Below, piece by piece: positions 2,714-36,416 of a stretch of DNA of 37,575 nucleotides. The stretch is from a virus (Duplodnaviria > Caudoviricetes), in the IMG/VR virus record IMGVR_UViG_3300029317_000052, positions 1-37,575 of that record. One strand, given 5' to 3'. A model generated the notes under the pieces. The model ran no database searches. It worked only from the letters and a program-made list of their open reading frames with translations, and was not told the DNA's origin. Numbering within the stretch: the first letter of the stretch is position 1; each line of letters starts with the position of its first letter. The position numbers and the translations under genes were made by a program.

Positions 2714-2721
2714 GTTCGCTC

Positions 2722-4263
2722 CTATGGCGCGTCAGCAACAAGTTTAGTGTTAGAATGTAGTAATGCTGAAGGTACATATTTTCCGACGGTAAAAATAGTA
2801 CCAGTCCACGGATAATCGTTAGCAGCTATTCCAGACACCGCAAAACTTTGTTCATCTGCTGCCCATCCGACACTAAAGAAGCCTTGATTCGCATCGCGAC
2901 TTGGTTTTACTTTATCTAAGATACTAACCTGACCCGCTAAACTGATGTGTACTACATAATGAAAACCTACCCCATCTTTGATGGTTACTATGCCATTCCG
3001 GTATCTCGGTTTGAATAGCGTATTACTCCATTGAGACCAGCCACCATTATCAGAACCACTTACGGTGTAACCAGACACGTTTTCGGCGGGTGCAGGGATA
3101 GACTTCCAAGTAATGCCTTTGTCTTCCGAATGGAATACCCCTGCGTTATATGTGCCACCTAACAACGCTAGTAAGTTGGTAGGGTTGTTGGGGTCTAGTA
3201 CTACAATAACGTTAGACATAGTGCTGGTGGTAACTACTTGGTCAAAGGGATGCGCATTTATACGAGTAAAAGTGTCCCCTGCATCTTCTGAATATTCCAC
3301 GACTTTCTCGTCAGTACCATTTCCTGCATCATAGCTAACTACCATAGTCAAACCATCATCTGTAAAGCTAGCATACATGCTTAAGGTGGTGCTGGTGGCT
3401 ACCGACAGGTTTTCGTGTATCATTTTATTGACATCTACTGCTGAATTAGCCGCCGGGTTGTCAATTCTCAAATATCGGTAATTGGCAGAAGCATCAGACA
3501 TTAAACAAGTAATGGTACTGCCGTTAGGTGCTACGTGTAAGCTAATATCATCGGCAATAGCACAGCCACCAGAGCTGCTACCAGCATTGGTGAAAGTACT
3601 TCCACTATTCACAGACACCCAGAGCCTATTGTTACTATTACTACTGTCCCATTGAACAAACGCTACTATCACACCATCAGCACTACAGCGGACAGCGGTA
3701 ATATCGTCACTACTACCTCCTGAGAATTCAAGGGTCGCTGTGTCTGTAGCGCGATTATATGAGTATAAAAAATTATTTTTCCCGTAATAAAATTTACTAC
3801 CGTCTACGACTACTGCGAACTCTTGAGCCTCGGGGTTTGTTAGCGTTAGATATGGTATTCCTACTGTGCCTTGTTGCGTCATTGCAGGTAAATTAGGAAG
3901 TACTTGACTTAACTCAGGATACAGCTCTTCTTCATCAGCTGTTAATATTCGGCCTCGGGTATTCAAAGGTAGTAATACTCGCCCGTCAGGCAGTGAGTTG
4001 CGCTGAGTTGTTGTAATACTACCAATATTTAACTGGGAAGAATAATCAGCTAATGCTGCATTGGCTTTTGCTAATTGCAGTGATGTTGCATTAACACCTA
4101 AAGCATCGGCATAATTTTTTATTGCTAACTCAATAGCTGCGGTATCTTTCGTGTTTCCTTTTGCAGCAAGTTTTAGATACGTTAATTCATCTAGTGTTTC
4201 AGTGCCTGTTAGCGCTAGCACTTTAATATCAACTCTGGTTTTTAAATTTGCGTTAACTGTCAT
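2722..4263 (-). CDS. tail fibre/receptor-binding protein with BNR/Asp-box beta-propeller
   Basis: Asp-box-like motifs VSVNSGSTFT, YSEDAGDTFT and HSEDKGITWK; helical N-terminus. Start reassigned to ATG 4263, just after the upstream stop. Confidence 0.7.
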   Translation of the reverse strand: MTVNANLKTRVDIKVLALTGTETLDELTYLKLAAKGNTKDTAAIELAIKNYADALGVNATSLQLAKANAALADYSSQLNIGSITTTQRNSLPDGRVLLPLNTRGRILTADEEELYPELSQVLPNLPAMTQQGTVGIPYLTLTNPEAQEFAVVVDGSKFYYGKNNFLYSYNRATDTATLEFSGGSSDDITAVRCSADGVIVAFVQWDSSNSNNRLWVSVNSGSTFTNAGSSSGGCAIADDISLHVAPNGSTITCLMSDASANYRYLRIDNPAANSAVDVNKMIHENLSVATSTTLSMYASFTDDGLTMVVSYDAGNGTDEKVVEYSEDAGDTFTRINAHPFDQVVTTSTMSNVIVVLDPNNPTNLLALLGGTYNAGVFHSEDKGITWKSIPAPAENVSGYTVSGSDNGGWSQWSNTLFKPRYRNGIVTIKDGVGFHYVVHISLAGQVSILDKVKPSRDANQGFFSVGWAADEQSFAVSGIAANDYPWTGTIFTVGKYVPSALLHSNTKLVADAP

Positions 4264-4264
4264 T

Positions 4265-4723
4265 TTATAATCCGTTTGCGATTGAGAAAAATAAAGCATC
4301 GTCAGCAGTTTTTTGTGCTGCATTTAAATCAATTTGCGACGCAGCCCCAAGCGCTGCTGGGGTTGGTTTATTACCCGGATGATAAACCGCAACACCATTA
4401 ATTTTTACATTAATAAAATCAGGGCTTGTGCCATTAATGTCAGCTAAGGCTATCGCTTCAGCTGCGTCACGAAGTGCAAACGTTTCGTTTCGTAGATTAG
4501 TCATTTGACTAACTAAAGCAGCGATGTCGATATCACGAAGATTTATGATGTCCGATTTGATTGCTGCAGAGTCTTCAGCTGCTACTAGTTGCGCGTTAAC
4601 AGCAGTAAGAACACCGTTGTATTCAGTCACTAAATCTTTTAGTTTTTGTAGATAGTTACCGCTATGAGTGCCGTAATCTTCAGCACTAAATTGCCACTCA
4701 ATTAAGGGGAATTGTTCAGCCAT
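4265..4723 (-). CDS. tail fibre proximal/adaptor protein
   Basis: Coiled-coil N-half; VYHPGNKPTPAALGA motif typical of tail fibres. Confidence 0.65.
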   Translation of the reverse strand: MAEQFPLIEWQFSAEDYGTHSGNYLQKLKDLVTEYNGVLTAVNAQLVAAEDSAAIKSDIINLRDIDIAALVSQMTNLRNETFALRDAAEAIALADINGTSPDFINVKINGVAVYHPGNKPTPAALGAASQIDLNAAQKTADDALFFSIANGL

Positions 4724-5565
4724 TATGCCTCTCTTATTGTAAAGTCTGCTTTAAAATTATTATAAAATGCACCATCAATTTCAGGTAAGATTTCAAACAT
4801 GCACGACATGGCATATTGACGCTCTTTTTGACCGCCAACGCCAGGGAACATGGAAATGTACCAAGTGGTGTCATCACCTACACGTTGGATAGCGTTGTAA
4901 AAATGAGGTCTGTCCAATTCATCGAGGTATTTAAGCGAAAATGACAATTTGCGGGGTCTGGCTTTTTTCTTAGCGTGAACACTGCCGCCTGCTGTTCTTC
5001 TTTTTTCAGTTTGACTTATCCAGCCTGATTTATGGCCATAACTAAAATTGATTTTGGGCTGTAGTGCTCGGCCTGCGAAAATACGCCCAATATCAATAAA
5101 GCCATTGGCGTTGTTTACATCAATAATTGTGATACGAACGGCTTGTGCTATGCCACTCTCGAACCAATAATCACAGGCGGTAATCTTCATACTGACAACA
5201 GCAGAAACTAACGGATCAATGAGAAATTCTAATTCACCTAGGTTTTTTTGCTGAACAGCTTGCAGCACTAACGAGTCATGAATTAATGTTGTCATAGCAA
5301 CATCACTAAACACCTCAACGCGCCACGTGGCGCCGTCGCTGACATTGATGCGGTTAAGCGCAACGCCTGATAATAAAACGGGGTTTTGCCAGGTCATTAC
5401 TATTTGCACTTGCGCAATATCTAGCGAGCGAAACGTGCGTGAATTACTCGGTAATTGCACATTAGTTAACGGTAGCGTTGCCACTTCTGAGCCTGTTGCT
5501 AGACTTAGTGCTGCTGTGTCAGCATCATTCACCATCAGCATTCTCACATTTTTAGTTATAGCCAT
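4723..5565 (-). CDS. tail tip structural protein
   Basis: Second gene after the tape measure; GFIDIGRIFAG and RTAGGS motifs resemble siphovirus tail-tip proteins. Confidence 0.7.
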   Translation of the reverse strand: MAITKNVRMLMVNDADTAALSLATGSEVATLPLTNVQLPSNSRTFRSLDIAQVQIVMTWQNPVLLSGVALNRINVSDGATWRVEVFSDVAMTTLIHDSLVLQAVQQKNLGELEFLIDPLVSAVVSMKITACDYWFESGIAQAVRITIIDVNNANGFIDIGRIFAGRALQPKINFSYGHKSGWISQTEKRRTAGGSVHAKKKARPRKLSFSLKYLDELDRPHFYNAIQRVGDDTTWYISMFPGVGGQKERQYAMSCMFEILPEIDGAFYNNFKADFTIREA

Positions 5566-5568
5566 GCT

Positions 5569-6987
5569 TTAGCTCCAAAGCTCAACGGTTACTTCACCAT
5601 CAACGGGGTTGTCTTCTAAACCAATAATAATCGCATTACGGCCTGCGCTTAAGCTGAAATCCCAATAGTAAAATATAACTTCACCGCCTAAATCAAACAA
5701 AAAGGGCGCGGCTAGGCCGTGAACCTTATGAATAATGCGCTTGACGCTGTACATGCCTGCTAATTTAGCTGCAACCGCACCCGCATCAACTTCATCAACT
5801 AAACAAGTATTGCGCGTTATTGGCGAGGCATCGGGGTAGTCAACCAAGTTATTGACTACTGTTTTCGTTTGATATTGTTGGCTAAATAGCTCTCTATTTT
5901 CTGCACTTACGCCACCGGCTAAACCGTCATTTTGCGGAGTATGGTTTTGCTTGTAATTAATGGTTACTTGCGATGCAGGCTCAATGGTTTTTCTAACACT
6001 TACGCCATCTTCAACAATATCATCTAGCGTTAGTGCATGCGCAGGAATACCCGTGATTGCAGGCATGATCTTAGCGACAAACTGACCGTTACGCGCGTAC
6101 ATGTGATAACCGATAATTGACTTACAAATTGTGTCGATAACCGTGCGTACTGTGCGTGGCTCGCGCTGATAAATACCAACTTTGTAGAGTGGTAACGCTG
6201 AAAGGTCAGCAATATTGTCAACCGTTTCACCTACAAAGGTGGTTAATAGCCAGGTAATAACGTCACCCGGGTACTGTATATGTGTGGCTGGTTTTGCCCC
6301 TTTAACGTCGCACGTTATGCGACCAACAGGCGCTTGATTTAAAGTAAAGCTGCCGTCGGCATTGTTTTTGTTGATGCTAATCGCGAGGCCGTTATCGCGC
6401 ACCTCAACTACATCTTCAACACTAATGTAGTTAACACAATATTTATGCGTGGCTGCATCTTCAAGCATCGGTTCAATGTTAAACACTTCACCGATACAGA
6501 TAGGCTTTGATTTTCCTGCATTTACTCCCGTCGCAAATGTGCCTGTATCAATGACTTTATCTAACTTCAAAGACGGGTCGCGTAATTCAATACTATATTC
6601 ATCATTACGGGCGGTAACTCGTTCAGCGAGTTGCTTGGCTATCACCACAAAATCACTGAGTCGCCACTCTTCATCACCGAGTAAATAAGTTACTTGACGC
6701 TTGAACACATTACCCAAAAATAGTGGCGTTAAGCTTTCATCTGCAAATAACGTTAACGCACTTCGACTCGCGGTTGAACCATTCGAGAAAATGGCCATAC
6801 TTTTTGAAAAAGTTGGAGATTCTAAAATAAAATCATCAAAAGCAATGTTAGCCGGTAAATCGTCAGGCAAGCTGACAAAAGGCGCTGTTGATAAGTAAGC
6901 AGTTTGAGCGCCGTTATTTAAGTACTCAACTTTAGCGAGTAAGGTGCGTTGCTTTGATGGCGATTCTAGCCACTCTTGAATAGTCAT
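5569..6987 (-). CDS. tail tip/hub structural protein
   Basis: Directly after the tape measure; GKSKPICIGEVFNIEP motif resembles siphovirus tail-tip proteins. Confidence 0.75.
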   Translation of the reverse strand: MTIQEWLESPSKQRTLLAKVEYLNNGAQTAYLSTAPFVSLPDDLPANIAFDDFILESPTFSKSMAIFSNGSTASRSALTLFADESLTPLFLGNVFKRQVTYLLGDEEWRLSDFVVIAKQLAERVTARNDEYSIELRDPSLKLDKVIDTGTFATGVNAGKSKPICIGEVFNIEPMLEDAATHKYCVNYISVEDVVEVRDNGLAISINKNNADGSFTLNQAPVGRITCDVKGAKPATHIQYPGDVITWLLTTFVGETVDNIADLSALPLYKVGIYQREPRTVRTVIDTICKSIIGYHMYARNGQFVAKIMPAITGIPAHALTLDDIVEDGVSVRKTIEPASQVTINYKQNHTPQNDGLAGGVSAENRELFSQQYQTKTVVNNLVDYPDASPITRNTCLVDEVDAGAVAAKLAGMYSVKRIIHKVHGLAAPFLFDLGGEVIFYYWDFSLSAGRNAIIIGLEDNPVDGEVTVELWS

Positions 6988-9900
6988 TATGGTAGTGCTC
7001 GCATAAATGCATCGCTTTGGTTCTCAATAATTGTGGCTTGTTCTTTCAATTGACGTGCTAACTTTTCTGCTCTTTTTTGAGCATCAGCTGCTTGTTGCTG
7101 CGCTTGTAAAATTTGTTGATTCTGCTTTTTAGTTTGCGCGTTAAGCTCAGCTTTAACCGAACGTAACTCTGCGACTACTTGCTCTCTCATTTTATTGGTG
7201 GCATCGGTTTGTTTTTCGTTGTTTTGCTGTACTGCAGCGTTTTGTTGGGCCCTAGCTTCTAATTGTCTTTGCATGGCTTCATTTAGAGTTTGTGCGTCAG
7301 CGGCAGCTTGGGTATTAATTTCAAGGGTATTGGCACTTAGTTCTGCTATTAACAGTGTTTTGTTAGTGTCAAGCTGAAGCGTTAAATCACTCATGGCAAT
7401 ATCAAACGCGGTTTGGTTCTCAGCTTCTAGCGCTTTACTTAATTCGTGTAGTTCTTGGAGGCTTTCAACGGTGGAGGTTTGCAACTCTTGCACTTTAACG
7501 TTGTGGCGAGTAATAGCCGCAGGTACTGAAGGTGCGCGTTGCTTACTTGGTGAATGAATGTTTTTAGCTGAAATGGCAGAAACTTCAGCAAATGATTTAT
7601 CAAAAATATTTTGAAAGGCATCACTGCTGGAATACATGTTTTGAGCTTCAGACAAGTAGTTTCTATGAACATTACCGAGACTAGAAATAGCATCAACATC
7701 GCCCGTTTTAGCTCTGGCTAAAGTGGTTTGATATTGCGATTTAGACTCTGCTAATTTTTGCTCATTAGTCAGCGTTGATAAATCACTGAGTAATAAGTTA
7801 TCTACCGCATCTTTTAGCGAATCAAGTGCAGAGCGCATGCCGTTGTATACTTCTAGCTCGGCTTGGTATCTGTTTTCAATTTGATTTAGCTGATTATCAT
7901 AAGCGCTTTGTGCTGCATCACGGCTGGCATTAAGCCCTTGAAGCTCTGCGTTATACTTATTAACATAAGCTTGCTGTAAGCTGTCAATGTTACTAATTTG
8001 CTCTTCAACTGAGCCTTCGCCAAGTAACGATGACAAGTCACTGATTTGAGTTGTTTGATAGTTACTTTCAGACCAGTTACTGCCTTGGCGTCTAATAGAT
8101 AAAATACTATTGGCAATACTGGCATTCAATGCGCTAAACGCTGACACTAAACGAGTGTTATTGTTTACTAAATCATTGACTACTTCTTCATGGTCACGGG
8201 TTAATGTGTCCATTGAACGTTGATGTACGGCATTCACATTTTCTAATGCATCTTCAACAATGGTTTGACGACGGTTAGCATACAGTTGCTCTAATAATGC
8301 GGTTTCTGCACCCAACTGCTGGGCGTCTTCAAACGAGTCTAAAAATGTTTTTTGTAAATCATCCAGTTTAATTTGCAAGGGCGACATATCAAGTCGCTCA
8401 AGCTGACCTTGAATGTCTTCAACAAAGGCTTGTCTTGCTGCCGCTAGTTCATTTTCTTTTTCAAGCGTGTCGTCAATAGCCGTGCCTTGGTTTTCAAGGG
8501 CATCGTAATATTCAGCAGATTGTCCTGATAATAATAATAATTGAGCATATAAACGTTGGTCAGCTTCGTTTAGCGGGTCTAATACACTAATCAGTGTTTT
8601 GAAGCCATCGCGTGTTGCTGGCACGCTAAGACCTAATGCTGCAAACTGTTCATTAAGCTGTTTTTGTAAATAATCAAACTGCTCAGCTTCGCTATAAAAT
8701 TCATTGAAATACGTGCTTGCTGCGCTTTGCAACGCTTCAATTGAGCCAGCAAAGCCAATAATGGCCTGAGTAGCCTCAATTGTTTGGTTAGCGTCAACAT
8801 CGGCCAAGGTGTTGCCGGTGATTTCAAGCACTGAGTTGAAAACAGCTTGCTCTTGCGCAAGGCGAATAAGTGTTTCGTATAAACCCTCTCCGACTTGTTG
8901 AAAGTCTTGTAGTCCTGGTACTAAGTAAGTGGCCATTAAGTCAGACTGACTAGAGAACATGGCTTCAAGTTCCGCTTGAATCTCATCACCGCTTAAATCT
9001 TTAAAACTTATTTTAGGCAAATCAATAACAAAATCATCTAGGCTTTTAGAAACATCTAAGTCAAGCACGTCAACCGCTTGATTAATTGAGTTACCAATGT
9101 CGCCAAAAATCAGCGCCATTTCATGCTCAAGTTGTGAGCCGATACTTTGGTATTCGGTGTTATAACTGGTTGATGATGATATGCCCCAAAATTTCTTTTT
9201 CTTAGTTTTTATATCAAAATAAGCTTGGGCTTGTAAAAGCCCGGTATCGATAACATCGCCGAAAGTTTGCGCGACAATACTGATGCCCGAGTCAACCAGT
9301 GATTTCTTTTTACTAGAAAAACTGCTAAAAATTTTGCCTACTATGCCCGTTGGATCTAATGATTTTAAAACTTGCCCAATACCGCCACCAATCAACAACT
9401 CTTCAAACTTAGAAGTTGTGCTTTGGTTGCCTAATTGGCCGCCGTAACTGGCTTCATCAAAGCGGCCAAAATTACTGACTAAATTAGCAACCAAATTCGT
9501 AATGTTGTTATTCAAATCATTCAAGCTAGCATTCATTTCACGCAGCTCTGCGTATTGATCGAGTTCTAACTCTTCAATGCGTTCGTAGCTGTTTAAAATA
9601 GAGGCTGATTTATCATCACTGCCAAGTACTGTGCCGGTGCCTTGGGTTTGTTGACGTTGCTCTGCACTTTCTGGCGCAGAGCCTGAGCCACCAGAAACAG
9701 CAACACCTAAGCCTGCCATAATGGCTATCATGGCAGCACCACTGGCGAAGCCGATAGGCCATGGTGCTGCGAATGCGGCGGTAACCGCCTCGATAGCATA
9801 ACTACCAACTCGTAATGCTGAATTTGCTAATTCTATTGCAGTAAAAACATCACTAGCGGCTTGCATGGCTTTGCGGCCTTTAGAGTTTTCACTAAACATA

Positions 9901-11981
9901 CTGGCGGCAGAATCAGTAATAGCACGATAAGAGCTTATTTCACTTATCGCGTTTCGGTCTTTTTGTTTAGCGAGGGCGTTTTCAGCCTTGGATATTTCAC
10001 CTAATTTTTTAGGATCATCGGCATATTTAACTTTGTCTGCAGCAAGTTTTCTTTGTTTATTGGCGTAACTTTCTTGTTGTTGGGCAAGCTTGTCTAATTG
10101 CTCACCGATTGTGCCAAAAGTGTTAACAATAACGTTACCAGCAGCGTTCCAACTTTCGCTAATATCATTAGCGCCATCGATGACTGACTGATAATAATCA
10201 CTGTCATCTTGTTTTTGCTCTGCTATTTGTGACTGTTCATATAATGCGGCAGTAAGCTCTTTTACCTTAGCTATTTCACCGTCTTTAATTTCACTTGAAA
10301 GTTTGCTTAGGTTGATTTCTTCCAGCTTCTCTATGCCAGTTAGTTTGCTTATTTTTAACTGCTGTTTAAGCGATGCGATCAGTTTTTGGTTAGTGGTTAA
10401 TTTAATTTTTTCGTTATTAGCTGACTTTTTAGCGGCTTCAGCTTTTGCTTTGGCTAAATCAACACCTTTTACAATAACTTTATTCCATTGAATGCCAGCC
10501 ATGCCCGCATCAAACAAAGCACCTTCAACATCTGACAATGAATTTTTTAACGCTTCAAGTTCTTTAGTCGCTGTTTTTGCTTGTTCGCTAGTTCCCCATA
10601 ACTGAACACCAGACGCGGTTGATGAATTTTTACCGTTAGTATTATTAGCTTGTTGTGCTTGTTCTTTTGCCAGGGCTTTTAATTCATCAATAGCCGCTTT
10701 CTTTTCATTGATAAGCTTTTTGTAAGCAGCCTGTGTTGATAGCTGCTCAGCACGTGTCATGTCTTCAATGGCTTTTCTGGTTTTTCCTAAAGTCTCTTCA
10801 AGCTGTTCTGCACCTGTTCTGGTTTCACCCATTGCGTCATTTAGTTCATACAATGCATAGCCTGCTAACACAGCAACACCAATAGGGCCACCAATTAGCG
10901 CTAACGAACCTTTAGCCGCACGGCCTGCCGCAGCCATTAAATTCATTTTCACGGTAGTACGGCTAATAACTTGCCCCATAGCATTGGTACTTACGCTTGC
11001 TGCAATATTACTGGCTATGTAGGTTTTAATGCCATTGGCAACAAGGCTTGTGTAGGCAGGTAATAATTTAGCACCAACAACAACGGCCATTACTTCAAAA
11101 AGCGTGGTAATGTTTTCTAAAACTTCAGGTAAGTTTTTGGTTATTTCATCAATAAGTGAAGCAATACCATCAATAGAATTACCAATACTGTCTGCAGCAC
11201 CTAAGTTACCCATTTCATTATAAAGTTGTGCGATAGAGGTTTGTAAGTTGCTTGATTTAGCACTTAAGCGACCCATTTGGTCGCCCATTGCGTCACCAAA
11301 CTTATTGTTACCTAAATCAATTAAATATTGCTGAATGCTAGCCGCATCTTTTTTAATGGTGGTACTAACATTTTGAAAGGTAAAACGAACGTTTTCACCT
11401 TGAGAACTGGCTTTAATACCAAATTCTTTTAAGCGTTCAAACTCGCCAACGCTAGCATCGGCTACCGCTTCAATCATTTGCATTAAATCTTTACCCATGG
11501 CCGCTGCAGTGTTGCCATAGCTGATCATAGATTGTTTAGACGGGTCTAAACCTAAGTGAGTAAGCTTGCTAAAGCCTTCAACTGATTGTGCTAGGGTAAA
11601 TGGCGTTTCTTTTGAAAGGTTAATAAGTCGGTCAAGTTCAACACTGGCAGAGTCAAAGTCACCAGTGATGGTTTTTAATTGGCCACGGTAGCCTTGAAAG
11701 GCATCAATACCGTCGTACATACCAGAAGCAATTTTGTCTATACCAAAACCAAGGGCAATAACACCTGCGGCTTGTGCAAGCATAGACTTTAACGAACCCG
11801 TTAGTACATCTGCACCGCCACTGGCTTGATTTAAGCCTTGACCAGCAACACGGCCGCTTTTACCTGTGCCGGTTAATGAGTGATTCACTTTATCTGCAGC
11901 ATCGTCAATTTGCTGTAAATCTTTTACAACAATTTTGCCGCCGTCAGTAGTAAGCTTTATCGCTAGTTTTAAATCACTCAT
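6987..11981 (-). CDS. tail tape measure protein
   Basis: 1664 aa, Ala/Gln/Leu-rich and helical. N-terminal tape-measure region (ETPFTL...GEFERLKEFGI). Follows the chaperone pair. Confidence 0.95.
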   Translation of the reverse strand: MSDLKLAIKLTTDGGKIVVKDLQQIDDAADKVNHSLTGTGKSGRVAGQGLNQASGGADVLTGSLKSMLAQAAGVIALGFGIDKIASGMYDGIDAFQGYRGQLKTITGDFDSASVELDRLINLSKETPFTLAQSVEGFSKLTHLGLDPSKQSMISYGNTAAAMGKDLMQMIEAVADASVGEFERLKEFGIKASSQGENVRFTFQNVSTTIKKDAASIQQYLIDLGNNKFGDAMGDQMGRLSAKSSNLQTSIAQLYNEMGNLGAADSIGNSIDGIASLIDEITKNLPEVLENITTLFEVMAVVVGAKLLPAYTSLVANGIKTYIASNIAASVSTNAMGQVISRTTVKMNLMAAAGRAAKGSLALIGGPIGVAVLAGYALYELNDAMGETRTGAEQLEETLGKTRKAIEDMTRAEQLSTQAAYKKLINEKKAAIDELKALAKEQAQQANNTNGKNSSTASGVQLWGTSEQAKTATKELEALKNSLSDVEGALFDAGMAGIQWNKVIVKGVDLAKAKAEAAKKSANNEKIKLTTNQKLIASLKQQLKISKLTGIEKLEEINLSKLSSEIKDGEIAKVKELTAALYEQSQIAEQKQDDSDYYQSVIDGANDISESWNAAGNVIVNTFGTIGEQLDKLAQQQESYANKQRKLAADKVKYADDPKKLGEISKAENALAKQKDRNAISEISSYRAITDSAASMFSENSKGRKAMQAASDVFTAIELANSALRVGSYAIEAVTAAFAAPWPIGFASGAAMIAIMAGLGVAVSGGSGSAPESAEQRQQTQGTGTVLGSDDKSASILNSYERIEELELDQYAELREMNASLNDLNNNITNLVANLVSNFGRFDEASYGGQLGNQSTTSKFEELLIGGGIGQVLKSLDPTGIVGKIFSSFSSKKKSLVDSGISIVAQTFGDVIDTGLLQAQAYFDIKTKKKKFWGISSSTSYNTEYQSIGSQLEHEMALIFGDIGNSINQAVDVLDLDVSKSLDDFVIDLPKISFKDLSGDEIQAELEAMFSSQSDLMATYLVPGLQDFQQVGEGLYETLIRLAQEQAVFNSVLEITGNTLADVDANQTIEATQAIIGFAGSIEALQSAASTYFNEFYSEAEQFDYLQKQLNEQFAALGLSVPATRDGFKTLISVLDPLNEADQRLYAQLLLLSGQSAEYYDALENQGTAIDDTLEKENELAAARQAFVEDIQGQLERLDMSPLQIKLDDLQKTFLDSFEDAQQLGAETALLEQLYANRRQTIVEDALENVNAVHQRSMDTLTRDHEEVVNDLVNNNTRLVSAFSALNASIANSILSIRRQGSNWSESNYQTTQISDLSSLLGEGSVEEQISNIDSLQQAYVNKYNAELQGLNASRDAAQSAYDNQLNQIENRYQAELEVYNGMRSALDSLKDAVDNLLLSDLSTLTNEQKLAESKSQYQTTLARAKTGDVDAISSLGNVHRNYLSEAQNMYSSSDAFQNIFDKSFAEVSAISAKNIHSPSKQRAPSVPAAITRHNVKVQELQTSTVESLQELHELSKALEAENQTAFDIAMSDLTLQLDTNKTLLIAELSANTLEINTQAAADAQTLNEAMQRQLEARAQQNAAVQQNNEKQTDATNKMREQVVAELRSVKAELNAQTKKQNQQILQAQQQAADAQKRAEKLARQLKEQATIIENQSDAFMRALP

Positions 11982-12408
11982 TATTCTTTTTATGCTCCGA
12001 CCAAGTGGTTAAACAGGCGCTTTCCATAATGTCTAATCCTTGCCAAATCAGCTCTATTGCTTCATCGTCAAGGTTTTTGTACCAACGTAGTTTTGATGCC
12101 CGTGCTTCAACTTTTAATGGATCTAAACAAAGTCGGGTGGCATCCATGCCTGCACGTTCCCAATACTTTCCAACCGCAAAGAACAACTCTACGATGGCAA
12201 GATTACCCGGCTGTACTTCAGGCATCTTGCTTGCACTTTCAACGACATTGCTTCCGTTCGCCTCCTGTGCAGCTAATACTTCCTTTATTTCCTCATCACA
12301 GACTTGCATGTCTCTGAGGGTTTCCCCCAATAAATCGCCGGTCAATTCATCTGTTTTCCCAACAAAAGAAAGACTGGCGTAATATTGGGCTACCGCTTTA
12401 AGTTTCCC
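11974..12408 (-). CDS. tail assembly chaperone GT, -1 frame segment (DUF1799-like)
   Basis: Frame is open from the slippery site GGGAAAC into ORF 11974..12345 (GKLKAVAQYYASLSFVGKTDELTGDL...). N...VELF.....W...GM pattern. Confidence 0.8.
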   Translation of the reverse strand, partial: GKLKAVAQYYASLSFVGKTDELTGDLLGETLRDMQVCDEEIKEVLAAQEANGSNVVESASKMPEVQPGNLAIVELFFAVGKYWERAGMDATRLCLDPLKVEARASKLRWYKNLDDEAIELIWQGLDIMESACLTTWSEHKKNNE

Positions 12409-12866
12409 GACAGTACTTTCGATAATTTTTCATTTTGATTTTTGTTAATTTCATCTTCATAAGCATCAGAAACAGCTTCTTGAAATAAGCGAATATCAAG
12501 TAAAATTGGGATATCTTTAAACTCTTCCTTACCGCTCAAAAATGGAAATGGATGTTTTTTATGTTTTTCAATACCAACCAGATACTTTTGAATAAAACTA
12601 TTTTTTAGCGTTTTAACTGCTTTAGTCAGTTTTTGACGGTCTTCAAAACTAGCATCATCGGGCAGTGCTTCAGCTTTATCGCTTATCTCTTGTAACTGCT
12701 TTTGATTAGCTTCTCTTTCTTTATCATCCACATTGATGTATTCAGCAACAAAGTGCGCTTTGTGATAAATTGTTTTACCTGCATTGTTCATCTCTTCACT
12801 AGGTACTGAAATTTCTACGGGCTTCTTAAAACGACCTTCTTTTAATGCTTCAACTTGAAATTGCAT
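12390..12866 (-). CDS. tail assembly chaperone G
   Basis: Between tail tube and tape measure; ends ...SGNLKR over the slippery site. Confidence 0.85.
   Translation of the reverse strand: MQFQVEALKEGRFKKPVEISVPSEEMNNAGKTIYHKAHFVAEYINVDDKEREANQKQLQEISDKAEALPDDASFEDRQKLTKAVKTLKNSFIQKYLVGIEKHKKHPFPFLSGKEEFKDIPILLDIRLFQEAVSDAYEDEINKNQNEKLSKVLSGNLKR
12402..12408 (-). other. programmed -1 ribosomal frameshift site G GGA AAC
   Basis: X XXY YYZ heptamer in the correct frame, three sense codons before the chaperone stop; same arrangement as lambda G/GT. Confidence 0.85.
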
Positions 12867-12910
12867 AATGTTCTTCCTATTGGGGTTGGTTTACTTTGGT
12901 GACTATTTAT

Positions 12911-12936
12911 AAGTAAAGGGGCGTGCACCCCCGTTT
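12911..12936 (-). terminator. possible weak intrinsic terminator/stabilising hairpin after tail tube gene
   Basis: Minus strand GGGGT-GCAC-GCCCC followed by TTTACTT. Confidence 0.4.
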
Positions 12937-12954
12937 AATTAGTGATAAAAGCGG

Positions 12955-13884
12955 TTAACGGGTTTTCATCGCTATTTCGTTATTTGCAGCAGTTGGCACA
13001 CAAACAAACGAACAATTAAGGTAGCTAATTTTGTTACGTTCGCTGCTGGTAACATTGGCGAGTTGGGCATTAGAAGCTAGCGCTTCAAAAATATGACCTT
13101 CATCTACAACATCAACACCTTTTTGAATATCAATAACGCCATAGGAGCCAATTAATTCATAAAAATCTTTCACGTCTGGGCTTGGCTCTTGTAGTTCAAT
13201 ATCAATAGTGACTTTACGGTCAATAATCTCAATTGATTGTGACTCTGGGCTATAAATCACCTCGTTATTGCCTTTGATCATGACTTTAGAAATAGAAGCG
13301 GAATAGCCAAACACATCGGTTTTAACAAAGTTAACTGGCGTTAAAGGTTTAGGGTTTTTAAACGCTGACAAATCAACATTAGGTGCACCACCTTCAACCA
13401 CTTGTGGGGCATAAAGCGCCATATAGCTAGGGAATTTAATTTTAGGTAAAGCGTCCAGGCTAAGTTCAATTTCCCAATTCATACGCGCACCTACATGGGT
13501 TTGACTGGTTAAGCCGCGAAAGAATTTTCCGGTGATTGAGTCTAAATTTTTCAAATCAGCTAAAGCAATTGCTACATGATCAGCTGCTGCCGTTACACTT
13601 AACCCTGCAGCTTTTAATAGCGGGGTAATAGCGGGAGGTACAATTGCAGTACCAGAGCCTGCCATATAAGAATCAAGTGAGCCTTCAACACGACGAGTTT
13701 TTTCTATAGTGCCTTTTGCGCCACTGCGGCCTGAATCGTAATCCATTTCTTCAGTGTCCACCTTGGCTACGTCAATATTTGCTTTAACGCGCATGGCATT
13801 TAAGGTGGTATTTGGCGTAGCATCAGTACCGTAAGTTGCTTCAACTTTGGCAGCAAAAACGTATTCAGCAAGTAAAATAGGCAT
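12955..13884 (-). CDS. major tail tube protein
   Basis: 309 aa; N-terminal AKVEATYGTDATP motif typical of siphovirus tube proteins; precedes the chaperones. Confidence 0.85.
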   Translation of the reverse strand: MPILLAEYVFAAKVEATYGTDATPNTTLNAMRVKANIDVAKVDTEEMDYDSGRSGAKGTIEKTRRVEGSLDSYMAGSGTAIVPPAITPLLKAAGLSVTAAADHVAIALADLKNLDSITGKFFRGLTSQTHVGARMNWEIELSLDALPKIKFPSYMALYAPQVVEGGAPNVDLSAFKNPKPLTPVNFVKTDVFGYSASISKVMIKGNNEVIYSPESQSIEIIDRKVTIDIELQEPSPDVKDFYELIGSYGVIDIQKGVDVVDEGHIFEALASNAQLANVTSSERNKISYLNCSFVCVPTAANNEIAMKTR

Positions 13885-17909: not shown

Positions 17910-18350
17910 TTAAATACCATCAATTAAATGATCACGTAAAATATCGAGTATTTCTATTCGTTCAAATGGGGCAACACCTAAAAATGGTCGTGCAGGTATG
18001 CCGTCAGCTTCACGTCCAAACTGATGGGTTGATGCATACTCAAGGTTTGAACCAAACGTTAATTGATTAGCGCCTAATTGATAATTAAGTGTATCTGCTA
18101 ACGTGCCTGTTTCGGTGAGTACTCTGTCTTGGCGCTTTTTCTTTTTAAGGGTGCGAGGTGATAACGGCTCCCATGGTTCACCGTCTGGTGCTTGTTGATC
18201 AATAAAACGCTGTTGGGTTGACTCAAGTAAATACTCGCCAATGTCCCTAAAGGCAGGTTCAAGATCACTACCTTGCTTTAATAAACGGTTTAATGCCTGG
18301 CTTATTTGTTTTTGGCCACGAACATCAACGCTAACGAATGAACCTGCCAT
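17910..18350 (-). CDS. virion morphogenesis protein, Mu gpG family
   Basis: PDGEPWEPL, L..TG.L, GSNLEYA.THQFG and IPARPFLG motifs. Confidence 0.95.
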   Translation of the reverse strand: MAGSFVSVDVRGQKQISQALNRLLKQGSDLEPAFRDIGEYLLESTQQRFIDQQAPDGEPWEPLSPRTLKKKKRQDRVLTETGTLADTLNYQLGANQLTFGSNLEYASTHQFGREADGIPARPFLGVAPFERIEILDILRDHLIDGI

Positions 18351-18610
18351 TAGTCTTGCTCTGAATCATTTAATGCTGATAACTCATCTATGCTAGAGGT
18401 AACTATTAATGATTCATGAACATCAGAAAAACAGGTTAGCTCGTAACCTTTTGCTTGTTGCTCTAGTCGTTCAATGCGAATTTTCTTTTCAGTAAAAGTT
18501 AGACCTATGCTGCTAATAACAACAAAAGCCTCATCAACCAAAGGTAAAGGTACGCTATGGTTAATAGGATCTGTTTTCATTTTGTTTAGCATTTTATCAA
18601 GCGAACTCAT
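18350..18610 (-). CDS. small acidic protein, candidate immunity protein for the MuF C-terminal domain
   Basis: 86 aa inserted between F and G, with an ATGA overlap with F and a TAATG overlap with G. Confidence 0.6.
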   Translation of the reverse strand: MSSLDKMLNKMKTDPINHSVPLPLVDEAFVVISSIGLTFTEKKIRIERLEQQAKGYELTCFSDVHESLIVTSSIDELSALNDSEQD

Positions 18611-20019
18611 TGTAAAGCCTTCTTCATCAAATTATCAAAATACACGGCAATGTTATTATTCCACCGAGCAAGCGCTTCTCTATTTAACATCCAAGCAGCA
18701 AAGTGCTCTGCATGCCACTCAACATCTAAATCACTTCCGTACCGCGTTAAACTAATATTGCGGTTCATAGGTGGCTTAGGACTACCTGCTTTAAAATGTA
18801 CTTGGTGACCAAGCTCATGTAACCAAGTAATAATAGCACCACCATGATTACCGCTATCTCCCCAGTGTCTAATTATCGAAGATAATGTACGAGGAATATT
18901 GCCTTTACCTTGAAGTATAGCAAGCTCTACTACGTTAATCAGTTCACTCACATTTACTTTGTTAAAATTGGCGTTACTCTCAAGCTTTACAGTTATATGA
19001 TTAAGCTCTGCTGCCGTCCAGCCGTTAGGCATAGCGCCTCTTTTAGCGCGATAAGTATAATTATTGTGACCATACTTTTTAACTGCGTCAGGCAAATAAG
19101 CCATAACCGCATCATTAATTTTCCTTGATGCTTTACTGCGAGGTGTCATTTCACTTGCTTTAACAAATAACGTTTTAACCTCGTGTTTTGTTAAAAATTT
19201 ACCAAGTAAGTCAAACTGAGGCTTAGCGGTTTTAAATTCAGCTAATTTACTATTTAAACTATGAACATCAGCACCTTTTACCGTACTAAATGCTGTTGGG
19301 GCTATACGTTCTGGTGGTTCAAATGGCTTAGCTTTTTCAACACTAAGCTTTTGTTGCTGTTGCTTAACTACGACTTTTCGCGGGGCATAATCAAAACCTG
19401 GATCAATACCTTTCGGTATTTTATGTACTTTGCCTGTGGCTTTATCTGTCCACTCGGTAATTTCAGTCTTAGGTGGTAGCTTTACTTTATTACCTTGGCG
19501 CTCTAATTGTTTAGCTGTTCGGCCTCGCACTTTACACTTACAGCCCCAACCATTTTGTGGAAAGTGTGTTTGCCAAAAGTCATGTTCTTTGGGTAAAACA
19601 GTTCCGTGCCAGGATAAGTGCATTGCTCTTGGGTGCACGCTGTCGCCATGTTGATACTCCCAAAAGTCAAAGTGCTGCAGCTGCTCATACCGGCCAGCAT
19701 TATAACTTTGTCTCATATTGGTATCGTAAATCACTTTAGCACGCCAATTGGCTTCACCTGTATGGCTCCAGCCGTGCTTAGCGACAATGGTTTTAAATTC
19801 TTTTTTAAACCAACCAATACTTTTGCCTTCTGCTATCGCACTATCAACCGCTCTTCGAAAATCGTTAAGCAAATCATCTTTCAATGCACCAGCGACCATA
19901 AAGCCGCTGTTATGGCCATCACGCCAAACATCAACCCAACGTTCTGACGGTATGTTTAACTTATTTTGAAAAAAACTTATCGCCTCTTTAAAGGGTAAAG
20001 AGCCATAACGGGCTGTCAT
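18607..20019 (-). CDS. MuF (gp30) minor head protein with C-terminal zinc-metallopeptidase-like domain
   Basis: MuF motifs IYDTNMRQSYNAGR, PQNGWGCKC and GIDPGFDYAP; C-terminal HELGH...YG.....EWHAEHF. Confidence 0.9.
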   Translation of the reverse strand: MTARYGSLPFKEAISFFQNKLNIPSERWVDVWRDGHNSGFMVAGALKDDLLNDFRRAVDSAIAEGKSIGWFKKEFKTIVAKHGWSHTGEANWRAKVIYDTNMRQSYNAGRYEQLQHFDFWEYQHGDSVHPRAMHLSWHGTVLPKEHDFWQTHFPQNGWGCKCKVRGRTAKQLERQGNKVKLPPKTEITEWTDKATGKVHKIPKGIDPGFDYAPRKVVVKQQQQKLSVEKAKPFEPPERIAPTAFSTVKGADVHSLNSKLAEFKTAKPQFDLLGKFLTKHEVKTLFVKASEMTPRSKASRKINDAVMAYLPDAVKKYGHNNYTYRAKRGAMPNGWTAAELNHITVKLESNANFNKVNVSELINVVELAILQGKGNIPRTLSSIIRHWGDSGNHGGAIITWLHELGHQVHFKAGSPKPPMNRNISLTRYGSDLDVEWHAEHFAAWMLNREALARWNNNIAVYFDNLMKKALQ

Positions 20020-20153
20020 AACTCACCTCTTTTGATAAGTGAATCAGGATCAAGCTCAAGAAATTTAAATAACTTTTGGTCAATAATAGTTAGCCTATTA
20101 AACTGATAACGATTATGCCAACGCTTATATCGTTTAATGAATTTGGCTAGCAT
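20016..20153 (-). CDS. 45-aa basic small protein (not in the ORF track)
   Basis: MLAKFIKRYKRWHNRYQFNRLTIIDQKLFKFLELDPDSLIKRGEL. Starts 2 nt after the portal stop, and its TGA overlaps the F start codon. Confidence 0.65.
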   Translation of the reverse strand: MLAKFIKRYKRWHNRYQFNRLTIIDQKLFKFLELDPDSLIKRGEL

Positions 20154-20155
20154 AA

Positions 20156-21778
20156 TTATTCGCCTTCATTTACATCAAAACGACCGCCAAGCTCTGCGGC
20201 CACAAAAGCTTGCTGCATCACTTCGTTTGCTTCATTTACGTCTAAATCTAAATCTGCTAGTAATAATTGCAGATCTTCTAATGACTCAGCTTGCTCCACC
20301 AGCTGCTGCACTTCACCTGTAAAACCTTGAAGAACAGATGACATTTCATTGGTAAGTTGCTTGGTGAAGCTGTCTAATTGTTCAGGCGCTACTGATTTAG
20401 CTTTAAGCGCCGCTATTTTGCGAATAGCTTTTAGTTTTGTTTGTGTGCTTCTTTCGTCAATTTCTTCCACTAACTGACCTTTAGCTAAAACAGTTTCGTT
20501 ATCTTTGGGTAAAGGTATTTGTACCTTTTCTTGTGCCCAGTTCAGTGGGATTTTAAAACCAACATCAACTAACGCAGGTAAAGAATCCGCGAACGCTTTT
20601 AAGTCTTCCGCTTCGGTGATGTCAAATTCAAACTTCGGGCACCGTTGTGGGTGCTGATAACTTTTGCCGTTTAAGTAATACATGGGAAAAACGAGATCAC
20701 GCGTTAAGGTATTGGCAATTTGTTTTAGGTCACTATCGCGCAGTTCCTGGCGAACTTCGTTATGTACATTACCCAAGGCATTGGTTGAGCTTTTACCGTC
20801 TGCTTGGCTGGTAAGTGTGCCGCCAAGAATAGCTTTAGAGATAGTTTTTTCCATCAAACTAACCATATATTCAAACGGCTGCTGTGTACCTTTGGCTGCT
20901 TCTTGAAAATCTATTTCCATACCTTTAGGAATAATGCCACCTGCATTGTGGCCAATACTCATTACGGCATTAAGTAAGGTGTTTTTTTCTTCTGGGCTAG
21001 CACCTGTTGGGTATTTACCAAGGCGAAGCGGTAAACCATAAATCTCTAAAAATTCGGCTAAATCACGGACACTATAATTTTTAAATAGATACGGCCAAGC
21101 CAGTACACGCGTTAAGCCTGAGCGGGCTAAGTAACCTGATTTAGTTTTATGACAATGAGAGATCCAACCAAAGGGCTGTAATGCTTCACCATCAGCGCTG
21201 TTATCGCGCAGGCGTAGTTCATTGCGGTTTTGTCCTAACTCTTGCGCTGGGTGAGTCATAAACCAACTGGGATCTTTAAACTCAATATTAGATGGTAGCC
21301 ACACTTTGCTTGCACCTACACTTTGCTGTTGCCAAGTGATCTCTTGATTAGAAAACCCCTTTAAAATAGCATCAGACATGTCAAAGATGACATCATCTAA
21401 AAAGGTCATATCTTCGAATAGCTCTTGCAGCATTTCAGCGTCTTTAACCTCGCTTGCACTGGCATTGCGCGGCGGCACTATTTTCCAATCGACACCCAAC
21501 AAAGCACGGCGGCGCTTTTGCAGTTCAGCAAATACATGACCGTCTTTTTCTTCCATGTCTTCAGCTAGTTCACACTGGGCAATAATATTACCCTGTTCTG
21601 CACCTATTAGAATATCGGCTAGTTTTTGTGGTGTTAATGCTCTGCTTGGGTGGTCACTGTAATGGTTGCGTAAATGGCCAAGTTTGGCATCATCAGTTTG
21701 CTGCTCTTTTAAATATTTAATGCGGAACTTATTGCCGTTGCTATCGGTTTGAATGGGGTTAGCCGTGTTGTTAGCCAT
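20156..21778 (-). CDS. portal protein, Mu gp29 (DUF935)
   Basis: DMEEKDGHVFAELQKRR, FLEIYGLP.RLGKY, SKAILGGTLTS and ALGNVHNEVR motifs. Confidence 0.97.
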   Translation of the reverse strand: MANNTANPIQTDSNGNKFRIKYLKEQQTDDAKLGHLRNHYSDHPSRALTPQKLADILIGAEQGNIIAQCELAEDMEEKDGHVFAELQKRRRALLGVDWKIVPPRNASASEVKDAEMLQELFEDMTFLDDVIFDMSDAILKGFSNQEITWQQQSVGASKVWLPSNIEFKDPSWFMTHPAQELGQNRNELRLRDNSADGEALQPFGWISHCHKTKSGYLARSGLTRVLAWPYLFKNYSVRDLAEFLEIYGLPLRLGKYPTGASPEEKNTLLNAVMSIGHNAGGIIPKGMEIDFQEAAKGTQQPFEYMVSLMEKTISKAILGGTLTSQADGKSSTNALGNVHNEVRQELRDSDLKQIANTLTRDLVFPMYYLNGKSYQHPQRCPKFEFDITEAEDLKAFADSLPALVDVGFKIPLNWAQEKVQIPLPKDNETVLAKGQLVEEIDERSTQTKLKAIRKIAALKAKSVAPEQLDSFTKQLTNEMSSVLQGFTGEVQQLVEQAESLEDLQLLLADLDLDVNEANEVMQQAFVAAELGGRFDVNEGE

Positions 21779-34133: not shown

Positions 34134-36416
34134 TTAAAGCGCGTCACCAGTTAGGTTCGAGTCTGTTTGGTGGCGTGCTTCTTCTAAAAATTTGTTAATT
34201 CTTCTCGCTGCCATGACATGGCTACGCAAATAATCTTTAAACCATTTATTTTCTTTTTCCGTTAATGCTGTATGCACTGATTTACGGGCATGTTCCCAGG
34301 CAATTTCTAATTCTGAGCGAGTCAATTTGGCGTTATTTTCAGCCGTCATTGCTTGCTGTCGGCTACGCTGTTCACGTCTTGCAGCAATAGCAGTAAGCTC
34401 AGCTTCGCTATAATTAGGTTTATCATTGTCATCGCCTATGGCTGAAATAGGTTTGTAATCATCAAGTGCTGACAACATGCCATTTTCATTAGGTAAACTA
34501 GGTTTAGGAAATGCCGCTAAGCTGCTGTTCTGGGCTTTGTGGTAGGCCAATTCTTTGGCGTGAATATCATCAATACCAAATATTTCAGCATATTCTTTTG
34601 CGGATTTTCGAAATTTACTCAGTACTTTACGTTCAGCTTTACGACGTTCAGCAAAGGCTTGTGGACTGATCTCGTTGCCAATTAGCTCTTGGTTAACGGC
34701 CTCTATCCAACTGGTATCTTCACCAATAGCATCAAGTGGATATAAAACCGCGCGGCCAACATCACTTGGATCAATAAATACTCGTACTTTTTTGCGATCC
34801 CATACGGCTTCCATCAATTCAGGGGCGGTATATTTCACGCTACCGGCTTTAACAATGCCGCGTATAACCGTTGCTTCACCAATAAAGTTAAGCAGTAAGT
34901 TGAGTGCATCTGGGTTAGTTATCATGCGTGGTTGATATGCAGATTGCTGATAGATATTAAAAGGCGTATCACCTAACTCGCTATGTACGCTGTGGTGATA
35001 GTTATACTCCATCCATTCATCAAAGAATTGCTGTAGTTCAGTACTGGTAAGCTTTAACTCCTCAACTTTTTTATCATCACGAGTTTCTTTTTTACTAATA
35101 CGCTCAGCAAAGCTTTTTGCTGCTTCAATTTGTTTTCTGTCTGAAACATTGTGACCAATATAACTAGGTAGTTTTTCAACAATAGAGTGGCTTAACGTTC
35201 TGAAAAAACGTTCAACAAAGGGCTTTTCCCAACCTGAATAGGCTTTAGTTCTGTGCTGATTATTTTCAAGCATGTCAAACAAAGCACCAACACGCTTACT
35301 AACATAATCACTACCATTATCAGTAACCGCTAAGCCATCTTCATTGAGCATGCCCCAATCAAGTATGGTTTTGCGCAGTAGTAAACAAATACCCTCGCTG
35401 TTTGATGTTTTCGCTACCCATAATTTAACGCGACGAGTAAAAACATCAATAACGGCAATAATGCTATGACGGCCATCTTTAAGCATGACATCGGCAGGGG
35501 TTGAATCGAACTCCCAAATATCATTGGGTGCTGCAAGGCGTTGGTGCATATAAGCAGTACCATATAAAGGTCTATGACTACTGTTATAAGCATCAGGGTT
35601 AGTGACGAAGGCAAATTCAGCGCTATGCTTTCTTACCCAACTATTTACCCAACGTTGCACGCTGCTTATTGAAGGAATTTCCCAGTACGGATAATCGGTT
35701 TGCTGCATTACTACTAACGACTGGTGAATGGCTTTAGGCTTACTAGCTAGATGAGGCATTTTGCATAAAAAACCCATTAAAAATTGCTCAACTTCGTCTT
35801 GTTGGTTAATAACTGATTTACCACGAGTGCTCGTGTAGTTTCCTGCTAAGGCAGACAAGCCTCCGTTATCAAGATGATTTTTCCAACGGTACTTAAAGTT
35901 CTTTGAAATAGTTTTAACCGCGCTATAAATCCACTGCGGCAATTCAAGCGAACGAGCTTTATATTCAGTTAAAAACTGGTGTAAGCCATCAACTTCTTTA
36001 CCAACAGATTTGTGTGGCACGATATAAACCTCATAAGCTTTCATGATCAGTAGCTTAGCTTCAGCTCTTGTTTGTGACTTTTTAGGTAAACAATTAAAAT
36101 CTATAGCACCCTGCACTTTTACCGCTTGTTTTTGCTCTTTATCAACAACAGCTTGACGTGTTAACTCTGCCGCCAGCTGTCGCGCTGATAATACTGGTGC
36201 GGTATTAGTTTCAACTAACGTTTGAGCCGCTTGCTTGGCTAAAAATTGCTGCGTAGCTTGTGGTAAAGAATTGATGTGGTATTCATGACCTTTACCAACA
36301 GAACACTTCCTTTTTTGCCAACTTTCTTTCGCTGCTTTCAAGCGAATATTTCTAGCGTTATTTGGTGTCCCTGGTAAGTCAGAAATTTCTAATGCTGTGA
36401 ACCAATCCTTAGCCAT
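34134..36416 (-). CDS. MuA-like DDE transposase
   Basis: N-terminal Mu DNA-binding domain (WFTA.E...LPG.P...W..R...EYH..SLP); catalytic motifs WEFDST, TDNGSDY and KPFVERFF. Confidence 0.96.
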   Translation of the reverse strand: MAKDWFTALEISDLPGTPNNARNIRLKAAKESWQKRKCSVGKGHEYHINSLPQATQQFLAKQAAQTLVETNTAPVLSARQLAAELTRQAVVDKEQKQAVKVQGAIDFNCLPKKSQTRAEAKLLIMKAYEVYIVPHKSVGKEVDGLHQFLTEYKARSLELPQWIYSAVKTISKNFKYRWKNHLDNGGLSALAGNYTSTRGKSVINQQDEVEQFLMGFLCKMPHLASKPKAIHQSLVVMQQTDYPYWEIPSISSVQRWVNSWVRKHSAEFAFVTNPDAYNSSHRPLYGTAYMHQRLAAPNDIWEFDSTPADVMLKDGRHSIIAVIDVFTRRVKLWVAKTSNSEGICLLLRKTILDWGMLNEDGLAVTDNGSDYVSKRVGALFDMLENNQHRTKAYSGWEKPFVERFFRTLSHSIVEKLPSYIGHNVSDRKQIEAAKSFAERISKKETRDDKKVEELKLTSTELQQFFDEWMEYNYHHSVHSELGDTPFNIYQQSAYQPRMITNPDALNLLLNFIGEATVIRGIVKAGSVKYTAPELMEAVWDRKKVRVFIDPSDVGRAVLYPLDAIGEDTSWIEAVNQELIGNEISPQAFAERRKAERKVLSKFRKSAKEYAEIFGIDDIHAKELAYHKAQNSSLAAFPKPSLPNENGMLSALDDYKPISAIGDDNDKPNYSEAELTAIAARREQRSRQQAMTAENNAKLTRSELEIAWEHARKSVHTALTEKENKWFKDYLRSHVMAARRINKFLEEARHQTDSNLTGDAL

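Follow-up and report, generated by a model that had tools for sequence, protein, structure and literature searches.

MuF toxins were defined by Jamet et al. 2017 (PMC5576092), who classed 20% of 191 such proteins as metallopeptidases, reported small downstream open reading frames (ORFs) in 89% of MuF toxins and listed MuF1-ATLF proteins of Aeromonas and Alteromonas in their Table S5. Non-enzymatic immunity proteins bind and block the MuF toxins Apk2 and Bxa (PMC12226406, PMC11699363), and gp7 of phage SPP1, a short MuF protein, attaches to the portal, enters the head in a few copies and assists infection (PMC6316719). The role of MuF toxins in the life of phages is still a question in the literature. 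Here we describe a MuF protein, F, encoded in a stretch of viral DNA of 37,575 nt (IMG/VR record IMGVR_UViG_3300029317_000052, Caudoviricetes; the whole stretch is called hereafter the window). The C-terminal part of F is apparently an intact but divergent peptidase of the ATLF (anthrax lethal factor) fold, which is swapped among phages as one cassette with a small downstream gene predicted to encode its inhibitor. A preliminary description, made from the sequence alone, had proposed a MuF toxin-immunity type pair at this locus, a reading now supported by the predicted fold, by co-variation and exchange of the two genes, and by a predicted complex of their products.

A direct homologue of F is already on the list of Jamet et al. 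2017, and MuF toxins with metallopeptidase C-termini are a described family, as the preliminary description had stated. This homologue, AMEC673_08885, entered in Table S5 as a MuF1+ATLF toxin, is identical to the MuF protein of one of the loci collected here (L043) and shares 65% (N-terminal region) and 42% (C-terminal region) identity with F; current Pfam assigns ATLF to neither protein. The locus has an N-terminal MuF, a portal-adjacent position in a temperate phage, a toxin-type C-domain, variable tails and a linked ORF of <150 aa, all of which are features of MuF toxins. Its main elements are:

18607-20019, minus strand: MuF protein F, 470 aa (ORF list)
19381..20019, minus strand: N-terminal head-targeting region of MuF, aa 1-213 (PF04233; phrog_220, minor head/DNA pilot)
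19318..19380, minus strand: variable linker, aa 214-234 (from aa 214 to 235 no position reaches 70% conservation)
18607..19317, minus strand: predicted C-terminal zinc-metallopeptidase domain of the lethal-factor/PPEP type, aa 235-470 (AlphaFold2 model, structural matches)
18805..18819, minus strand: HExxH motif, H401-E402-L-G-H405, with two predicted zinc ligands and the general base (alignment)
18706..18741, minus strand: Y427-x6-E434-x3-E438, with the predicted catalytic Tyr, third zinc ligand and second Glu (alignment)
18350..18610, minus strand: 86-aa acidic three-helix-bundle protein, predicted cognate inhibitor (immunity protein) (linkage, co-fold)

The C-terminal domain resembles lethal factor

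The residues singled out earlier from the sequence are all in place, namely HELGH at aa 401-405, Y427, E434 and E438, and GIDPGFDYAP does lie at aa 204-213, followed by 257 residues. A search with aa 235-470 found 65 proteins among 964 candidates, 63 of the 65 carrying a MuF domain, and 130 cluster representatives came up at E ≤ 0.001 when the search was widened. H401, E402, H405, Y427, E434 and E438, as well as G333 and T335, are invariant in 66/66 homologues, and the six catalytic residues are invariant in all 85 of 85 de-duplicated loci; the catalytic motif is therefore not due to chance. By analogy with lethal factor, these residues are assigned as zinc ligands, general base and catalytic tyrosine. 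From their invariance we infer that the domain would cleave peptides in a zinc-dependent manner. The ratio of non-synonymous to synonymous substitution rates (dN/dS) of the domain is ~0.05. Moreover, the lethal-factor spacing given in the preliminary description is borne out by the family profile, which aligns to PDB 2l0r with both motifs in register (E 0.029, weak alone).

The AlphaFold2 model of aa 235-470 has a predicted local distance difference test score (pLDDT) of 96.3. When this model was compared by VIA with 48,161 solved chains, only three reached a Z of at least 8: lethal factor (1yqy, residues 568-775; Z 10.9, 168 residues aligned, root mean square deviation (rmsd) 4.1) and the Pro-Pro endopeptidases PPEP-3 (Z 9.7, 160 aligned, rmsd 3.4) and PPEP-2 (Z 8.2, 154 aligned, rmsd 3.7). 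Unrelated zincins scored Z 5.5 or less. A zincin fold of the lethal-factor type is thus predicted, as had been proposed. Foldseek on the PDB put lethal factor in the top row but at E 0.36, with no match to the model at E ≤ 0.001, and gave two unnamed matches at E ≤ 0.001 among viral models. Single-sequence searches of Pfam, PHROGs, NCBIfam and the PDB (phmmer) returned nothing specific for the C-domain. Because of the invariant residues, the profile match and the predicted fold, the C-domain is best described as a divergent, apparently intact ATLF-fold peptidase that is not a formal member of PF07737. An atlas look-alike score of 0.92 to an ATLF-named cluster is a lead only.

The protease is linked to a conserved small gene

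As first described, an acidic ORF of 86 aa lies between F and G and overlaps both. Its start shares 4 nt with the F stop codon (ATGA) and its end shares 1 nt with the G start codon (TAATG), and judging from these overlaps it is translationally coupled to F and G. The dN/dS of 0.12-0.19 relative to three close relatives indicates a real gene. The pI of its product is 4.6 compared to 9.9 for the C-terminal part of F, and among 85 pairs the protease is net-positive in 75 and the small protein net-negative in 81. A single-sequence search with the small protein recovered only 5 relatives, and library searches matched it to no known family. Comparison of the loci nevertheless showed it to belong to a conserved, though fast-evolving, family of genes (mean identity 24%). 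Its model is a three-helix bundle (pLDDT 79) with only generic structural matches (best Z 6.7).

The small-gene profile matched 75 of the 80 viral loci kept (of 181); three of the misses are contig ends and two are full loci (L066 and L067), and inspection of L066 revealed a similar-looking helical ORF below threshold. The protease was present in 52 of the 53 named-genome loci, some of which duplicate viral loci, and the small gene lies directly behind it in 51 of these 52. The MuF fusion is kept in all 52. At L142 the small gene is found ~550 bp after the protease gene rather than directly behind it; the ~550-bp spacer (L142:4702-5260), which is also seen at L072, holds an open frame of 121 codons on the opposite strand. 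In an order-wide set of 401 genomes, 15 have the protease and the small gene adjoins it in 15/15. Of the de-duplicated MuF loci, 147 extend 300 bp or more downstream; among these, protease and small gene occur together in 114, the protease without the small gene in 2, neither of them in 31 and the small gene without the protease in 0. That is, the small gene is behind 0/31 MuF genes with other tails.

Intact small genes were also seen beside truncated or shortened F frames in three genomes (G059, G102 and G391). In the first of these, which belongs to the window's own genus, an intact small gene (L183; G059:C1:901349-901791) stands beside the last 64 codons of the protease. This locus is a degraded prophage remnant in which G is shortened, an IS66 fragment lies upstream and a RelE-like gene is found in the vicinity. 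As for expression, no conserved internal promoter was detected ahead of the small gene, the final 150 nt of F ranking top in 9/85 loci, and a consensus promoter scan of the window, a weak type of scan, gave 7 sites compared to 6.3 expected. An internal promoter for the small gene was rejected as not above chance.

Protease and small gene are swapped as one cassette

The gene at the right boundary of the swapped region is:

17910..18350, minus strand: MuG / tail-completion (neck) gene, 146 aa (PF05069, E 6.8e-36)

Distances were compared among 85 loci of 120, after removal of those >95% identical. Small-protein distances follow protease distances (partial r 0.63, Mantel p 0.001, a p-value that overstates because related loci are not independent), and their partial r is -0.08 with the MuF N-region, -0.10 with G and 0.19 with the portal. 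Individual loci display the exchange directly. L008 is 93% identical to the window in the N-region and 91% in G, as opposed to 58% in the protease and 30% in the small protein. L130 is similar (N-region 91%, protease 52%, small protein 26%, G 80%), and L001 presents the reverse pattern (N-region 71%, protease 90%, small protein 78%, G 76%). At the DNA level, identity to L008 is 80-89% in the N-region, 41-68% in the protease and small gene, and 78-91% in G. The drop in identity to L008 and L130 starts near 19200 and ends at about 18300-18350, enclosing exactly the protease and the small gene. The two are swapped together as one cassette; the co-variation and joint exchange that the preliminary description asked for are thus observed.

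A predicted complex at the active site

Co-folding of protease and small protein gave a score of 0.94, with 0.01 for the best of 3 controls; the mark used for this score is attained by 116/157 solved pairs and 2/215 mismatched pairs. At least 95% of contacts recur between runs, the pLDDT of the partner is at least 88, and the interface of 119-128 contacts extends beyond the cleft. In the model, the third helix of the small protein sits in the active-site cleft, and its residues D63, E66, S67, I69 and V70 face Y427, E434, H405 and the G333-T335 edge strand. The tightest modelled contacts are E434-S67, E434-D63, Y427-D63, H405-V70 and A437-V70, along with P331-W334 to E66 and T335 to I69/V70. 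Position 63 is D/E in 84/114 protease-linked small proteins and position 66 is E in 76/114. The co-fold supports the earlier proposal that the small protein binds the C-domain, and places it at the active site. The 86-aa protein is accordingly predicted to be an inhibitor that blocks this site.

Stand-alone copies of the small gene on host chromosomes

The small-gene profile matches 26 of the 401 genomes, more than the 15 that have the protease. Genus g52, which is most likely Aeromonas since all named orphan homologues are Aeromonas hypothetical proteins, has a small-gene match in 23/46 genomes and the protease in only 6. In 17 of the 46 (L242-L258) the small gene occupies one non-phage chromosomal site, flanked by rsxA, mostly accompanied by a DMT transporter, and by a chemoreceptor gene. 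Neither MuF nor the protease lies close to it, and 13 of the 17 genomes lack a protease match. Within the plasmid collection, orphans occur on a single record, which is chromosome-sized. Of the 23 g52 genomes without a small-gene match, 10 were searched for the flanking transporter as a sign of an empty site; none had a match, which in a search without a positive control is uninformative.

The orphan genes have purine-rich ribosome-binding sites (AGGAG in 14 of the 16 shown). Their median dN/dS is 0.17, and all 116 usable pairs, from 16/17 sequences, are <1; by this measure the orphan copies are intact and under purifying selection. They are ~50-57% identical to the nearest prophage copies, with a profile match of 95.5%. 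Position 63 is E in 20/26 orphans and position 66 is E or D in 22/26. In a midpoint-rooted tree of 110 small proteins (79 columns) the orphans fall among the prophage copies with modest support, which suggests that the gene may have moved from phage to host.

Further orphans outside a MuF context were seen at L259-L261, L264, L267, L270, L271, L205 and L206. They include single copies at other sites, adjoining trpA in L206 and IS5 in L211/L270, and tandem pairs occur in G259 and G291. At L252 (1700-2400; G412), a MuG-like fragment (39%) lies in a disrupted chemoreceptor gene directly behind the orphan, and could reflect a Mu insertion that came later or else be left over from how the site arose.

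A MuF homologue in virions

The cultured phages HS6 and vB-Vv-ZX4290 carry both the protease and the small gene, and the HS6 virion proteome (Duhaime 2017, PMC5498523, Data Sheet 3, 54 HS6 rows) includes the MuF homologue. In HS6 rows 30-52 of that sheet the proteomics column seems one row off, since gpT and the portal read 'none'. Rows labelled 'phage structural protein' have a value in 7/7 cases under the shifted reading versus 3/7 as printed, and the shift would move the paper's 'major capsid protein' label onto gpT. The MuF homologue is detected under both readings and the small protein only under the printed one, although its absence under the shifted reading is weak because it has just 4 usable tryptic peptides.

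The N-region and its alternative tails

PF04233 (Phage_Mu_F) spans aa 53-164 of F (E 1.7e-12; 48.5 bits versus a cut-off of 29.6). The preliminary description had the MuF domain end at about aa 213; this holds for the N-region common to relatives with other tails, which ends there, but not for the Pfam domain itself. Region aa 1-213 also occurs on MuF proteins with other tails, which are short (L090, L228, L117), PBECR1-like, DRAT-like or a different ATLF.

The last of these, the MuF tail of L109 (3610-4347), passes the Pfam ATLF cut-off (34.6 bits) and is not followed by a member of the small-protein family; by its Pfam match it is a second ATLF subtype on the same MuF carrier. At L207 (1495-3149; G332) a different type of phage has a MuF protein whose tail matches Pfam ATLF weakly (E 3.3e-5). 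Behind it comes a remote member of this small-protein family (E 7.5e-5), and protease and small gene may therefore be paired outside Mu-like phages as well. L112, L120 and L123 have MuF tails of ~530 aa, and that of L112 matches DRAT ADP-ribosyltransferase (E 8e-8) and, weakly, HipA-like sequences.

Genomic setting

The gene content of the window, encoded on the minus strand, is that of a Mu-like transposable prophage. A Pfam scan identified the Mu transposase (34134-36416), small terminase, protease I and gpT major head protein, and the gene order in the head module is portal - F - small ORF - G, with the remaining feature being:

20156..21778, minus strand: Mu portal protein (PF06074, E 3.5e-99)

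By analogy with gp6/gp7 of SPP1, MuF is predicted to dock on this portal protein. The gap between portal and F contains a basic 45-aa ORF (20016-20153, minus strand) that overlaps the F start (ATGA) and has no Pfam match; the gap is 7-36% identical in five close relatives, and both flanks are 65-88% identical. The region 2207-13884 (minus strand) has no Pfam sheath match, a weak tail-tube match and an ORF of 1664 aa that is tape-measure-sized, and the combination of a Mu-type head with this tail region resembles HS6-type sipho/Mu hybrids.

A probable host-directed protease with a predicted coupled inhibitor, and the alternatives

We consider it probable that F and the small protein form a MuF polymorphic-toxin/immunity pair, in which a head-packaged protease cuts a host protein on entry and the coupled inhibitor protects the producer. 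Late expression would yield protease and inhibitor together, and in the producing cell the inhibitor would keep the enzyme inactive. MuF would enter the capsid at the portal in a few copies, probably without inhibitor, and the protease would likely be released into the next cell along with the DNA, where it may cut one or a few cytoplasmic host proteins and thereby help the phage to establish. A defence or regulatory protein is tentatively ranked as target ahead of general growth poisoning. That no internal promoter was found counts against immunity of lysogens and favours protection during assembly.

Hosts with a stand-alone inhibitor copy would blunt the protease step, and the chromosomal orphans hint, on genetic grounds, at a benefit to hosts from stopping the protease. 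It is conceivable, if doubtful, that Aeromonas-type bacteria have domesticated the inhibitor at a fixed chromosomal site to neutralise MuF protease delivered by Mu-like phages; the orphans may also have taken on another role. If domestication is true, the protease would be an early effector against the host, and MuF immunity genes would be convertible to anti-phage defence.

Several points weigh against a toxin/immunity pair of this kind. The window protein has no Pfam ATLF (PF07737) match at E ≤ 0.1, only 4/55 family members have one at that threshold (best E 0.0012), and the fold match to lethal factor has an rmsd of 4.1 and 16% identity. Of the 50 highest-ranking pairs by mutual-information covariation, 5 fall within the interface versus 5.1 expected (Neff 52). 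The loci are kin and most were retrieved through the protease, and the small-gene profile was made from 45 viral loci, so that counts on those loci, such as the 75 of 80, are partly circular. Adjacent genes travel together by linkage alone; G, yet, is equally adjacent to the small gene and does not co-vary with it. The HS6 table gives no peptide positions, and MuF detection does not single out the protease domain. Finally, injection of MuF toxins is still described as a hypothesis in print (PMC10083569).

An inter-bacterial weapon, in which the injected protease inhibits the growth of non-lysogenic competitors and lysogens are immune via the inhibitor, is unlikely. This model has been put forward for MuF toxins (PMC5576092), Apk2 and Bxa are reported as toxic in E. 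coli, and small genes have been kept intact next to broken protease genes (G059/L183) and as orphans. However, without a conserved internal promoter, expression of the small gene in lysogens lacks support. Moreover, reported MuF copies per head number only 1-3, and Jamet et al. classed peptidases as likely low-toxicity (PMC5576092).

Distinctly less likely is a morphogenetic or self-processing protease that would cut MuF or another head protein in assembly or ejection, timed by the small protein. The gene does sit in the head module, and zincin metallopeptidase (MPTase) domains of phage polyvalent proteins have been proposed to be mainly autoproteolytic (PMC5512222). However, the protease domain is dispensable for assembly, because the same N-region carries short (L090, L228, L117) or unrelated, PBECR1-like or DRAT-like, tails. 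In addition, the prophage already encodes the Mu I protease, the domain sits at the end of its protein, where cleavage would set no cargo free, and inhibitor copies on the host chromosome would make little sense.

Marginally less likely again is that the small protein serves as a folding chaperone, adaptor or substrate instead of an inhibitor. The co-fold cannot discriminate between these roles, its large interface (119-128 contacts) reaches beyond the cleft, and the printed HS6 table puts the small protein in virions, from which a one-row shift of the column removes it. Protease substrates bind in extended form, unlike the helix that fills the cleft in the model.

The slimmest chance is given to a non-injected, late-expressed toxin-antitoxin-like pair acting only in the producing cell or stabilising the prophage, which would suit the coupled two-gene layout and the truncated or shortened F frames with an intact small gene (G059, G102, G391) but not the MuF fusion kept in all 52 named-genome loci with the domain, the occurrence of the MuF homologue in virions, or the lack of a promoter of its own in consensus scans, which are weak.

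Comparison with described systems

The MPTases of phage polyvalent proteins (PMC5512222) are, like the window domain, zincin-like, lethal-factor-like by profile and located on virion proteins thought to be delivered early. They mostly lie inside large multidomain proteins and have been proposed to be self-processing, whereas the window domain stands alone at the C-terminus and has a partner gene of its own. A type II toxin-antitoxin operon would stand alone with its own promoter; the window genes are coupled inside the late operon, where promoter scans, weak as they are, did no better than chance.

Lethal factor and PPEP-2/-3 (ATLF fold, PF07737) share with the window domain the HExxH and Y-x6-E-x3-E motifs and are its best structural matches. 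Identity is 13-16%, however, and the window domain is the only such part of a phage head protein, without a strongly hydrophobic segment. It lacks the multi-domain architecture of lethal factor, since its 236 aa align only to residues 568-775. A protease-profile search of the genome of the prophage (72 contigs) found the domain once and no other protease copy or partner. Nothing in these data points to an animal toxin, and the fold does not give the substrate.

Apk2/IapK and Bxa/Bsi (PMC12226406, PMC10083569, PMC11699363) have in common with the window system a MuF fusion, an adjacent small immunity protein and fast-diverging cognate pairs. As warheads they carry a (p)ppApp synthetase or an ADP-ribosyltransferase, accompanied by an extra enzymatic immunity gene, whereas the window system has a predicted protease warhead and a single small partner. 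We found no study of MuF-ATLF or protease-type function or of orphan MuF immunity, nor the inhibitor family and its chromosomal copies, in open-licence PMC and bioRxiv texts without supplements.

The closest described system is MuF1-ATLF (PMC5576092), which likewise combines a MuF1 N-domain behind the portal of a temperate phage with an ATLF-like C-domain and a small downstream ORF. In parts 1-3 of 6 of the main text and 29 of the 32 ATLF rows, this entry is a profile label, with no structure, downstream family, cassette exchange or orphans. The family described here offers a clean test system, comprising a compact enzyme with a confident model and one small predicted inhibitor with named contact residues, to whose value naturally swapped cognate pairs and the cultured carrier phages HS6 and vB-Vv-ZX4290 add. 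The architecture is already known; what is added here is a defined inhibitor family, its cassette swaps with the protease and its chromosomal orphans.

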